A stretch of 57,759 nucleotides of DNA, the filler included, from Diploschistes diacapsis (lineage: Eukaryota), in the NCBI GenBank assembly GCA_023645945.1. It is 4 parts of 4 records of this genome, joined end to end, with 100 filler letters (N's around TTAATTAATTAA, not from the genome) between each part and the next. Parts side by side here need not be neighbours in the genome. Positions count along the whole stretch, not along the records: positions 31,925 to 40,470 come from JALAIB010001133.1; 3 more parts are not named here. One strand, written 5' to 3'. Below are positions 36,638 through 38,349 of this stretch, piece by piece (position 1 is the stretch's first letter; every line of letters starts with the position of its first letter). The position numbers and the translations under genes were made by a program. The notes beneath the pieces were generated by a model that searched no databases, was not told the origin of the DNA, and saw only the letters and a list, made by a program, of their open reading frames with translations.

Positions 36638-37424
36638 TTAAGAAGCGAAACAGCATTATGAAGCCATGCTAGAAGAGTTGTATGTACAAGAAGAGGAAGA
36701 GAAAGAGGGAGAGAAAAGAGGGAGAGGAAGAGGAAATTCAAAAAACGAACGAAACAATTTGTCAAATTCATGAGGCGTAGCTGATGCGCATTACAGGGGC
36801 TGAGGCAGGAATGAATCGCCAGGTGGGCTATGATTAGATCATCAGTGATGCCTCATAGGGCTGATATTCCACGCCGCTGTATCGTTCCAAAGGGTCAAAC
36901 GTTTAACGTTTAACCGTTGGCATCGGGTACCGTTCGCCGACTACGGGAAGAGGGAGTTCGTGAGTGGGGAGAAGGGGACATTGATGCAAAGTGACTCATG
37001 GGCACTCATAGCCTGTCACAATTGACGGAGCATGAGCTGTTGTAAAAACCACTTAGGAGTAGAACATGATAAAGAGGGCCTCTAGAACTATTGCAAATAC
37101 CAACTTTGGGGCTATACTGCCAACGCATACTCTAGAATATTGGTTGTACTTTCTCTGCACAATTCCAAAAAGTGAAGCTATGGCCAAGGCAAGTGGTTCT
37201 GCTCCTTAAACGCCTTCTGAAAAAAGAGATGGATACACATGATTAGACTCCGTTCCCTTGGCCGATAAGGGCAGTGTATAGCCCTGAGCATGAGCCGACA
37301 AACCCCTACCAAGAGCTGACATCGTCTGACAATCTTCTCCTTCCATCGCTCCCTTCCTCAGCACCCGAATCGTTTGCATGGCGCCCGAAGAAGGACATAA
37401 GATGGCTGACAAGTCATGCAATAG

Positions 37425-38129
37425 TTACTGTTTGAGCTTGAGCATCTCCCTCCACGCCGCCGTCTCCGCCTCTTGCCGCGCCAGTCGTAGCTTGAGGTCA
37501 TCTCGCTCACGATTCGCAGCATCGAGTGCATCCTCGAGCTCTTTGATGCGGTCGAGTCGCTTCTGTCGGTACTTGCGTGCCGCTACTGTATTGCGCTGCC
37601 GTTTGAGCGCTGCGTCAGATGATCTGACACCACGCTGCTGGCCATAAGCCGGTGTGGCTGGAGCGTCCACTATGTCGGAGCTGTCGGAGGAAAACGTGGA
37701 GTGAGTGGGTGCCCCTGTTTCTGTTGTGTCGTTGTGGTTGGGCGTATCCGAGGCGAAGTGTGGGAAGTCTAACATCGGTTGGGAAGTCTGAGGCGCGACC
37801 TGCGCCTGGGATGAGTGCATGCTGTCAAGCAATTCGTGCTCTGCTGATATGGTATTCGCGATTGGAAAATTAAGGTGCATCCAAGAGTTGTCGGATGGCC
37901 AGATGGCCGGCGACTGGGTAGGGTCCGTGAAGAAGTACTCGAAATCAAGCGCTGAAGACGACAGGTTCGGGAGAAGTGGTAGCGCGACGGTGCTTTCGGG
38001 ACCGTCTACCGTCCAATTGTAGTCAACCGGGGTTGATTGAAGAGTAGAATTGCTGCGGCTGGAAGGACATGTCGGCGACCTGAATGGCGGGTGCTCCTGT
38101 GGATGAGGTTCCGGTGGGCATGATTGCAG
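37425..38129 (-). CDS. jlbA: bZIP transcription factor of the JlbA/IDI-4 (Gcn4/CpcA-related) group; start uncertain (first in-frame ATG 37880, candidate CUG 38129)
   Basis: C-terminal KRQRNTVAARKYRQKRLDRIKELEDALDAANRERDDLKLRLARQEAETAAWREML, preceded by a PEST-like region. The frame is open from 38183. Confidence 0.8.
   Translation of the reverse strand: MQSCPPEPHPQEHPPFRSPTCPSSRSNSTLQSTPVDYNWTVDGPESTVALPLLPNLSSSALDFEYFFTDPTQSPAIWPSDNSWMHLNFPIANTISAEHELLDSMHSSQAQVAPQTSQPMLDFPHFASDTPNHNDTTETGAPTHSTFSSDSSDIVDAPATPAYGQQRGVRSSDAALKRQRNTVAARKYRQKRLDRIKELEDALDAANRERDDLKLRLARQEAETAAWREMLKLKQ
38023..38121 (-). promoter_or_regulatory. Out-of-frame uORF (32 aa, second AUG at 38070) overlapping the bZIP N-terminal extension
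   Basis: ATG 38121 gives MPTGTSSTGAPAIQVADMSFQPQQFYSSINPG, ending at TGA 38023-38025. Confidence 0.6.
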
Positions 38130-38331
38130 AGTTGTCTCGGCCTCAACCTCGAGGCCGCTTAAGGTATCTTGACAAGTTGAGATTTAGATTTCCAAACACT
38201 CCAAAAAGGTGGGTGGGAGTTGTTTGGGTGTTAGAAGTTGTTGTCTGAAAGCAAAATGGGGAATTTATGGTGTTTTCCCTGGCTTGGCAGTGCCTTTCTC
38301 GGCTGAGCGGAATTGGGTTAGCGTTCCGATG

Positions 38332-38349
38332 TGATTCAGTATGACTCAT
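38332..38349. promoter_or_regulatory. Tandem Gcn4/CpcA/AP-1-type sites (TGATTCA and perfect ATGACTCAT) upstream of the bZIP gene
   Basis: gTGATTCAgtATGACTCATa read directly. ATGACTCAT is the optimal Gcn4 site. Confidence 0.7.

Follow-up and report, generated by a model that had tools for sequence, protein, structure and literature searches.

A probable CUG start and a conserved leader cassette in a bZIP gene of Diploschistes diacapsis

The bZIP protein IDI-4 of Podospora has been proposed to start at a CUG codon that is conserved in Neurospora, as stated in a passage of Ivanov et al. 2017 (PMC5487733). In passages of Castillo et al. 2022 (PMC10241597), the Neurospora gene NCU08055 (zip-1) is called an idi-4 homolog, its product ZIP-1 is said to have a 'poor CUG start codon', and its translation is reported to depend on eIF2alpha phosphorylation. 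For A. fumigatus, part of a polysome study reports that the jlbA/IDI-4 mRNA is translationally up-regulated in endoplasmic reticulum stress (PMC3943501), while passages of Fedorova et al. 2005 (PMC1325252) regard IDI-4 and JlbA as orthologous, with one copy in each filamentous ascomycete genome. Here, we describe a bZIP gene that is plausibly a further member of this family, located in a 57,759-nucleotide stretch of DNA from the lichen-associated fungus Diploschistes diacapsis (hereafter the window, to which all coordinates refer). The gene probably starts at a CUG codon, and this codon is part of a leader arrangement that recurs in related sequences.

The other closely described system is cpc-1. 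According to passages of the same study (PMC5487733), the cpc-1 mRNA carries a pair of upstream open reading frames (uORFs), of which uORF1 has 3-6 codons and uORF2 has 35-70 codons, and its N-terminal extensions are at least 160 codons long, with conserved CUG, AUU and ACG starts upstream of uORF2. The inhibitory uORF overlaps the extension in the -1 frame, and the overlap is selected in the main frame, not in the uORF frame. The original prediction for the present gene had invoked the uORFs and non-AUG extensions of cpc-1 and its homologs, and did so correctly as far as these passages go. In the open-access literature on idi-4, jlbA and zip-1, no description was found of an overlapping uORF, a proline motif or an upstream hairpin; the details of the hairpin and of the uORF peptide given below may thus be previously undescribed.

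The bZIP reading frame and its leader cassette

The gene and its leader features are on the minus strand. An in-frame TAA (38184..38186) closes the bZIP frame upstream, and the frame is open from 38183 down to the TAA at 37427-37425. On the combined basis of the sequence, its relatives and the literature, the CUG at 38127..38129, with A at -3 and C at +4 (acaactCTGc), is the most likely start of the protein. The proposed full coding sequence (37425..38129) would then consist of 234 codons plus the TAA with no need of an intron, residues 1-234 corresponding to 38129 to 37428. The first in-frame AUG is found at 37878..37880 and has U at -3. Between the CUG and the codon preceding this AUG lies an AUG-less N-terminal part of 83 codons (37881..38129), which contains the acidic/aromatic patches NWT, LDFEYFF and WPSDNSW and aligns with the AUG-less N-terminal regions of relatives; counted from the upstream stop, the AUG-less stretch amounts to 101 codons.

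Two further elements flank the CUG. Five nucleotides (nt) past it, an out-of-frame AUG with A at -3 opens a uORF of 32 codons, or 33 counting the stop (38023..38121; MPTGTSSTGAPAIQVADMSFQPQQFYSSINPG), with another out-of-frame ATG at 38070. The uORF ends in CCC GGT TGA C, where the TGA occupies 38025-38023; GAC TAC AAT TGG, in the bZIP frame, starts at the next base. Upstream of the CUG is a hairpin of 6-8 base pairs, cGGCCUC-GAGGUU-GAGGCCg (38138..38157), whose 3' GGCC ends 9 nt ahead of the CUG and which is part of the minimum free energy fold of the leader. The original prediction had listed the frame open from 38183, its 101 AUG-less codons before AUG 37880, the CUG with A at -3, and the uORF at whose end a skip of one base enters the bZIP frame, and our own reading of the sequence agrees with all of them.

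Taken alone, the window is only mildly unusual and no more than suggestive, because an open stretch of 101 codons has a chance of P ~0.04 by base composition (186 of 5000 shuffles had no in-frame stop). We see the weight of the case in the conservation of the layout among relatives. A scan of JGI metagenome contigs yielded 31 loci, which together with the window were grouped into 17 lineages (16 plus the window), and many of these loci have AUG-less extensions of the bZIP frame, of 60 to 174 codons. In the 17 lineages the same order of elements, referred to here as the cassette, is found: a GC-rich hairpin, an unpaired gap, an in-frame near-cognate codon and the uORF AUG. The gap between hairpin and near-cognate codon is 7-10 unpaired bases, except for 13-14 in loci L011 and L017. 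The near-cognate codon is CUG in 10 lineages (the window included), AUA in 3, GUG in 2, UUG in 1 and AUC in 1, and a purine is found at -3 in 12/12 single-exon loci as well as in 5/5 further loci. In 14 lineages, the uORF AUG lies exactly 5 nt past the near-cognate codon (CUG CAA NNA UGN). CUG initiation beside an overlapping uORF, one of the modes put forward by the original prediction, is thus supported by the fixed place of the codon in the cassette of 17 lineages, by its replacement with other near-cognate codons, by the purine at -3 and by the literature.

In the most divergent loci, L027, L028 and L029, a GUG follows the hairpin and the uORF AUG comes 27 to ~40 nt on, not 5. In these three loci, the spacing from hairpin to start is better kept than that from start to uORF.

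The hairpin, with its core GGCCUC / GAGGCC, occupies the same place in 17/17 lineages. The strict motif is present in 21 of the 32 sequences (31 loci plus the window), while the other 11 are truncated upstream, sit beyond an intron or have a variant stem. In 17/17 lineages each of the six core stem positions forms a standard pair; double compensatory changes occur at pairs 1-5 in L018/19, L013 and L031, L027 and L031 show G-U pairs, and the loops, of 3-9 nt, differ in both length and sequence. This tally was made by script on a hand alignment and involves small numbers; a MAFFT alignment of the cassette split the 5' arm of the stem, and one made with a covariance model included palindrome hits on the reverse strand. 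The retention of pairing through compensatory changes indicates a structured RNA element. A covariance model of the cassette (R1) has a single match in the window, at the hairpin (51.6 bits), and an Rfam search of the leader gave no match.

Two contigs from different samples share their beginning (L011:1-25 and L017:1-25), the palindrome A6-CGGA...TCCG-T8, which lies ~55 nt upstream of the hairpin. It may mark either a genuine 5' end of the transcript or a break in assembly. The 1-kb intronless contigs were also searched for poly(A) tails as a check for complementary DNA, and none were found.

Independent assemblies and coding evidence

As a mundane alternative, the original prediction had suspected an extra base in the run of four C's at 38029..38032, a location with which our reading agrees. 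Five runs that contain the stretch were found, and no RNA run carrying it was among the 9 listed. We compared the window with assembled contigs, as opposed to raw reads, from four of the five, among them: X1, a lichen metagenome and the probable source run; X2, from another study; and X3, a rock metagenome. In X1, one separately assembled contig with a depth of 92.9 is identical to the window over 37400-38300. The major contigs of X2 (depth 67-68) are gapless over 37968-38073, and the X3 contig differs by 10 substitutions and 0 gaps over 37701-38122. The four-C form is real in three samples and is not an assembly artefact, which refutes the extra base as an error. The second uORF AUG, at 38070, is AUA in both the X2 major form and X3; only AUG 38121 is therefore conserved among these samples.

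A sequencing error, or a recent inactivating frameshift that has left a pseudogene, is on this evidence barely conceivable as an explanation of the split frame. It would accord with two low-depth X2 contigs (8.0 and 6.1) that each lack one base within 37968-38073, but it has to contend with the four-C form in X1, in the X2 major contigs and in X3, as well as with the same layout in 16 other lineages. Moreover, the polymorphisms between the window and X2-X4 within the main open reading frame (ORF) comprise 10 synonymous and 8 nonsynonymous changes in the bZIP frame, against 4/14 and 3/15 in the other frames, which points to purifying selection on the main ORF.

The two shorter X2 contigs cover 37968-38042 (depth 8.0) and 38014-38073 (depth 6.1). 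If the missing base lies inside the uORF, AUG 38121 would be fused to the bZIP frame in a minority genotype. One low-depth X2 contig has G>A at 37998. Upstream of the cassette there are indels at 38218, 38257 and 38277: X3 lacks 18 bases, X2 and X3 have an additional G or GG, and part of X2 is one base short. Over 38100-38160, no difference between X2 and the window was seen, and the cassette appears to be more constrained than its upstream flank.

Several observations suggest that the AUG-less part is translated in the bZIP frame. Between the near-cognate codon and the bZIP domain, none of the 12 single-exon loci has an in-frame stop, whereas upstream of the near-cognate codon in-frame stops occur at a distance of 5 codons (L006/7 and L018/19) or 2 codons (L031). 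In 7 further loci, 110-170 open codons lead up to a canonical GT donor, with a candidate intron that brings the frame back; the intron is clear in L012 (GTACGT...CTAAC...AG). The frame of the uORF AUG relative to that of the bZIP domain is the same in 12/12 single-exon loci despite many N-terminal indels, which is expected only if the intervening stretch is coding. The D-F and W patches are shared, and the aligned lineages have them ahead of the first in-frame AUG. L011 and L017 differ in the AUG-less part by 18 synonymous and 13 nonsynonymous changes in the bZIP frame versus 6/25 and 1/30 in the other frames, and the polymorphisms of the window relative to X2-X4 in 37881-38022 are 4/5 versus 2/7 and 2/7. 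The G+C content at third codon positions (GC3) is 0.71 in the AUG-less part and 0.62-0.64 in the main ORF. The original prediction had asked which frame shows a synonymous-site bias: in L011/L017 and in 37881-38022 the bias favours the bZIP frame, but it does not do so in the uORF overlap.

The gene might instead be an ordinary uORF-regulated one, with a sole product of 151 residues from AUG 37880, a GCN4/ATF4-style reinitiation gate, and an upstream open frame that is a relic or due to chance. AUG 37880 is indeed the first AUG in any frame past the uORF stop, 143 nt downstream, the open stretch of the window has the chance probability given above, and database gene calls for relatives begin at internal AUGs. 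We nevertheless regard such a gene as unlikely. The first in-frame AUG is not conserved in position, being found 71-169 codons past the near-cognate start in relatives, and here has a U at -3; the AUG-less part shows conserved motifs and a coding signal, and keeps its frame relation to the leader cassette in 12/12 loci. Furthermore, the AUG starts in the databases correspond to internal residues in L001 (..PLPFGQAWE..) or lie behind introns, as in L012.

Since an intron separates the N-terminal part from the bZIP exon in some relatives, we also considered the possibility that AUG 38121, or an exon further upstream, is joined to the bZIP frame by an unrecognised intron. The possible donors (GT at 38079, 38068 and 38027) and acceptors (AG at 38006 and 37993) give no plausible intron that removes the stop. 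From GT 38027 to AG 38006 the length class is right (1 mod 3), but the intron would have only 22 nt; from GT 38068 to AG 37993 (76 nt), both donor (GTCCTT) and acceptor (AAAG) are poor, and the conserved NWT patch would be deleted. With the bZIP frame from the CUG onward needing no intron at all, a spliced start is extremely improbable.

Some of our observations weigh against the start at CUG 38129 and the layout proposed around it. In the uORF overlap, the uORF frame has a GC3 of 0.69 and the bZIP frame one of 0.50, pairwise synonymous and nonsynonymous counts are equal across the three frames (22/51, 21/52 and 26/47), and each of the three polymorphisms alters the amino acid in both frames. 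Across this overlap the third frame, too, is free of stops in 12/14 lineages, and openness of the bZIP frame there is consequently uninformative. Of the four pairwise comparisons made for the N-terminal part, three, in gapped alignments, give no frame signal. The base at +4 of the CUG is C, not the favoured G, and the hairpin region of the window is unexceptional in folding energy alone (z -0.92). In addition, both the transcription start and the use of the CUG are deduced from sequence, and the orthology to IDI-4, ZIP-1 and JlbA is drawn from the shared CUG and from profile matches to Podospora and Cercophora proteins, not from a direct comparison.

The overlapping uORF and a possible translational switch

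The uORFs of the relatives are 19-37 codons long. In the window, the core motif of the uORF peptide is S19-F20-Q21-P22-Q23-Q24 (38050..38067), with Pro22 at 38058-38056, and most uORFs of the family fit the pattern [FY][FYW]-x-P-x-[QR]-[RQ]. The uORF in X2 and X3 reads I-F-F-Q-P and is nearer to this pattern than the S-F-Q-P-Q-Q of the window. Nine of the 12 representative lineages have the proline at codon 22, although the alignment was anchored on it and its invariance is partly by construction. The first two bases of its codon (CC) are invariant and all four third bases (G, T, A and C) are seen, while the bZIP-frame residue that overlaps the codon varies (R, L, Q, P or H). It should be added that F/Y in the uORF frame corresponds to S/T in the bZIP frame, and mean identity (0.29, 0.21 and 0.32) does not separate the frames. 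These comparisons provide a hint of selection on the uORF peptide. A local blastp search with the uORF peptide and the N-terminal part against 120 homologs gave nothing under E 0.1, these regions being too divergent.

Programmed frameshifting offers another route into the bZIP frame, and was the second mode raised by the original prediction: translation would start at AUG 38121 and shift by +1 at GGU-UGA-C. The layout permits such a shift, UGA-C is a weak stop context, and GC3 in 38121-38026 is highest in the uORF frame. However, uORF length is not fixed among the lineages, the uORFs end variously in TGA C, TAG T, TGA G, TAG C, TAA C, TGA A and TGA T, and their last sense codons are unrelated (GGT, ACC, CTT, CTC, TGG, AGA, GCT, GCA and others). 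Among the relatives' uORFs compared, no conserved shift site or stop context was found at the uORF end. GGU is unable to re-pair in the +1 frame (GUU), and a frameshift would leave the conserved near-cognate start in its good context unexplained. Because neither the stops nor their contexts are conserved, a +1 recoding site at CCC-GGU-UGA-C is unsupported and we consider it very improbable. Of the two arrangements whose conservation the original prediction had proposed to examine, the near-cognate start thus holds among the relatives and the uORF-UGA/+1 arrangement does not.

If translation starts at the CUG, scanning ribosomes would pass the conserved GC-rich hairpin and then meet a weak CUG nine bases on, and five bases past this codon a strong AUG would open the 32-codon uORF, which is in a different frame. 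Most ribosomes passing over the CUG would be captured by the uORF, so that the amount of full-length factor would depend on the frequency with which the CUG is chosen. After translating the uORF, some ribosomes may reinitiate at AUG 37880, giving a 151-residue form devoid of the acidic/aromatic N-terminal part. We infer these roles of the hairpin, of the 5-nt spacing between CUG and AUG and of the uORF peptide, and likewise the short form, from the layout. Two devices may set the choice of the CUG: refolding of the hairpin at the mRNA exit of the ribosome while the CUG is in the P site and/or queuing of ribosomes behind a stalling uORF peptide, the stalling being pure conjecture. We advance only tentatively, as a possibility with the odds against it, that the hairpin, the near-cognate start, the uORF AUG and the uORF with Pro22 together form an undescribed, Pezizomycotina-wide translational switch that sets CUG choice. 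Were this so, the rate of CUG choice would set the dose of a cell-death/stress bZIP factor.

Family relationships and comparison with known systems

The C-terminal bZIP domain, comprising the basic region KRQRNTVAARKYRQKRLDRIKELE and the zipper, was located at 37449..37616 by Pfam and homolog alignment. The Pfam matches are below the curated cut-offs, with 20 bits (E 7e-4) for bZIP_1, whose cut-off is 27.6 bits, and 17 bits for bZIP_2; in an alignment with 10 homologs carrying PF00170/PF07716, 28 basic-region and zipper columns are invariant. At E <= 1e-3 there are 235 homologs, mostly bZIP proteins of Sordariomycetes that are similar mainly in the bZIP domain. Profile matches include proteins of Podospora, Cercophora and Apodospora, with E 1e-42 to 1e-53. 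The names IDI-4 and JlbA are absent among the 120 matches listed in either homolog search, and a search of the ESM Atlas returned generic bZIP clusters only. The IDI-4/ZIP-1/JlbA label is a plausible one for the gene.

Many database entries of the family have 139-206 residues and start at internal methionines (P0005, P0006, P0002, P0007, P0010-P0013 and others). For example, the 'MSFGQSWT' that begins P0005 corresponds to the internal ..PLPFGQAWE.. of L001, and forms beginning 'MDFT..' lie behind the intron in L012. It appears that gene callers requiring an AUG truncate bZIP family members of this type. Equating the 'MSFGQSWT' start of P0005 with the MSF at 38070 in the window was considered and rejected, given that X2 and X3 have AUA there and that the L001 motif is internal to a longer ORF. 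Some Fusarium entries are named 'GAF domain' proteins despite their bZIP profile match.

Further upstream, the palindrome ATGAGTCAT, listed without strand at 38341-38349, lies 193 nt upstream of the hairpin. It is the sole ATGASTCAT in the window, where 0.46 are expected, and we take it to be a GCN4/CPC1/AP-1-type site. Of the 14 relatives examined, 4 (L002, L003, L006 and L024) have a TGASTCA site between -161 and -228 relative to the hairpin. The palindrome is likely to be a promoter element, and it hints at cross-pathway control. An ATAAAT is present at 38268-38263, also upstream of the cassette.

The gene can be compared with five known systems. Antizyme is made by +1 frameshifting at a UGA, and the present layout is similar in that a UGA closes a short AUG-started ORF while the main ORF, devoid of an AUG, is in the +1 frame. 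The conserved shift site that defines antizyme was looked for in the relatives and is absent from them. In AZIN1, ribosomes reportedly queue in an upstream conserved coding region whose peptide starts at the near-cognate codon itself. Use of the weak near-cognate start could here likewise rise through ribosomes stalled on a conserved, proline-containing upstream peptide, but this peptide starts at an AUG just past the near-cognate codon, and its stalling is conjectural. The mRNAs of C/EBP alpha and beta have a CUG-started long form, a small out-of-frame uORF and short forms from downstream AUGs, in a ratio governed by initiation-factor activity. The likeness extends to a bZIP mRNA with a CUG long form, an out-of-frame uORF and downstream AUGs; the differences are that C/EBP belongs to animals and is related in sequence only within the bZIP domain, and that the short form here is putative and its AUG unconserved.

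A closer parallel is cpc-1, likewise a bZIP gene with a conserved AUG-less N-terminal extension and near-cognate starts upstream of an overlapping uORF. Yet cpc-1 has two uORFs and several near-cognate starts, whereas the present gene and its relatives have one uORF of 19-37 codons and one near-cognate start, and no ATG occurs between 38280 and 38122 on the minus strand of the window, so the two-uORF arrangement of cpc-1 is not found. The near-cognate start here is fixed 5 nt before the uORF AUG and has the hairpin 7-10 nt upstream; the extension measures 101 codons from stop to AUG, or 83 from the CUG, as opposed to at least 160; and the uORF peptide shows a hint of selection, in contrast to the main-frame selection of the cpc-1 overlap.

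The closest likeness is to IDI-4, ZIP-1 (NCU08055) and JlbA, which share with the present gene a Pezizomycotina bZIP protein, a full ORF without AUG and, in the passages cited above, a conserved CUG as the proposed start. Seen as a further member of this family, the Diploschistes gene would show how a stress/cell-death bZIP factor is wired for translational control in filamentous fungi, here in a lichen-associated one. The fixed spacing of hairpin, CUG and uORF AUG across 17 lineages offers a compact cassette for the study of near-cognate start choice, and this cassette could be tested by mutation in Neurospora zip-1, for which passages of Castillo et al. 2022 (PMC10241597) describe existing reporters.

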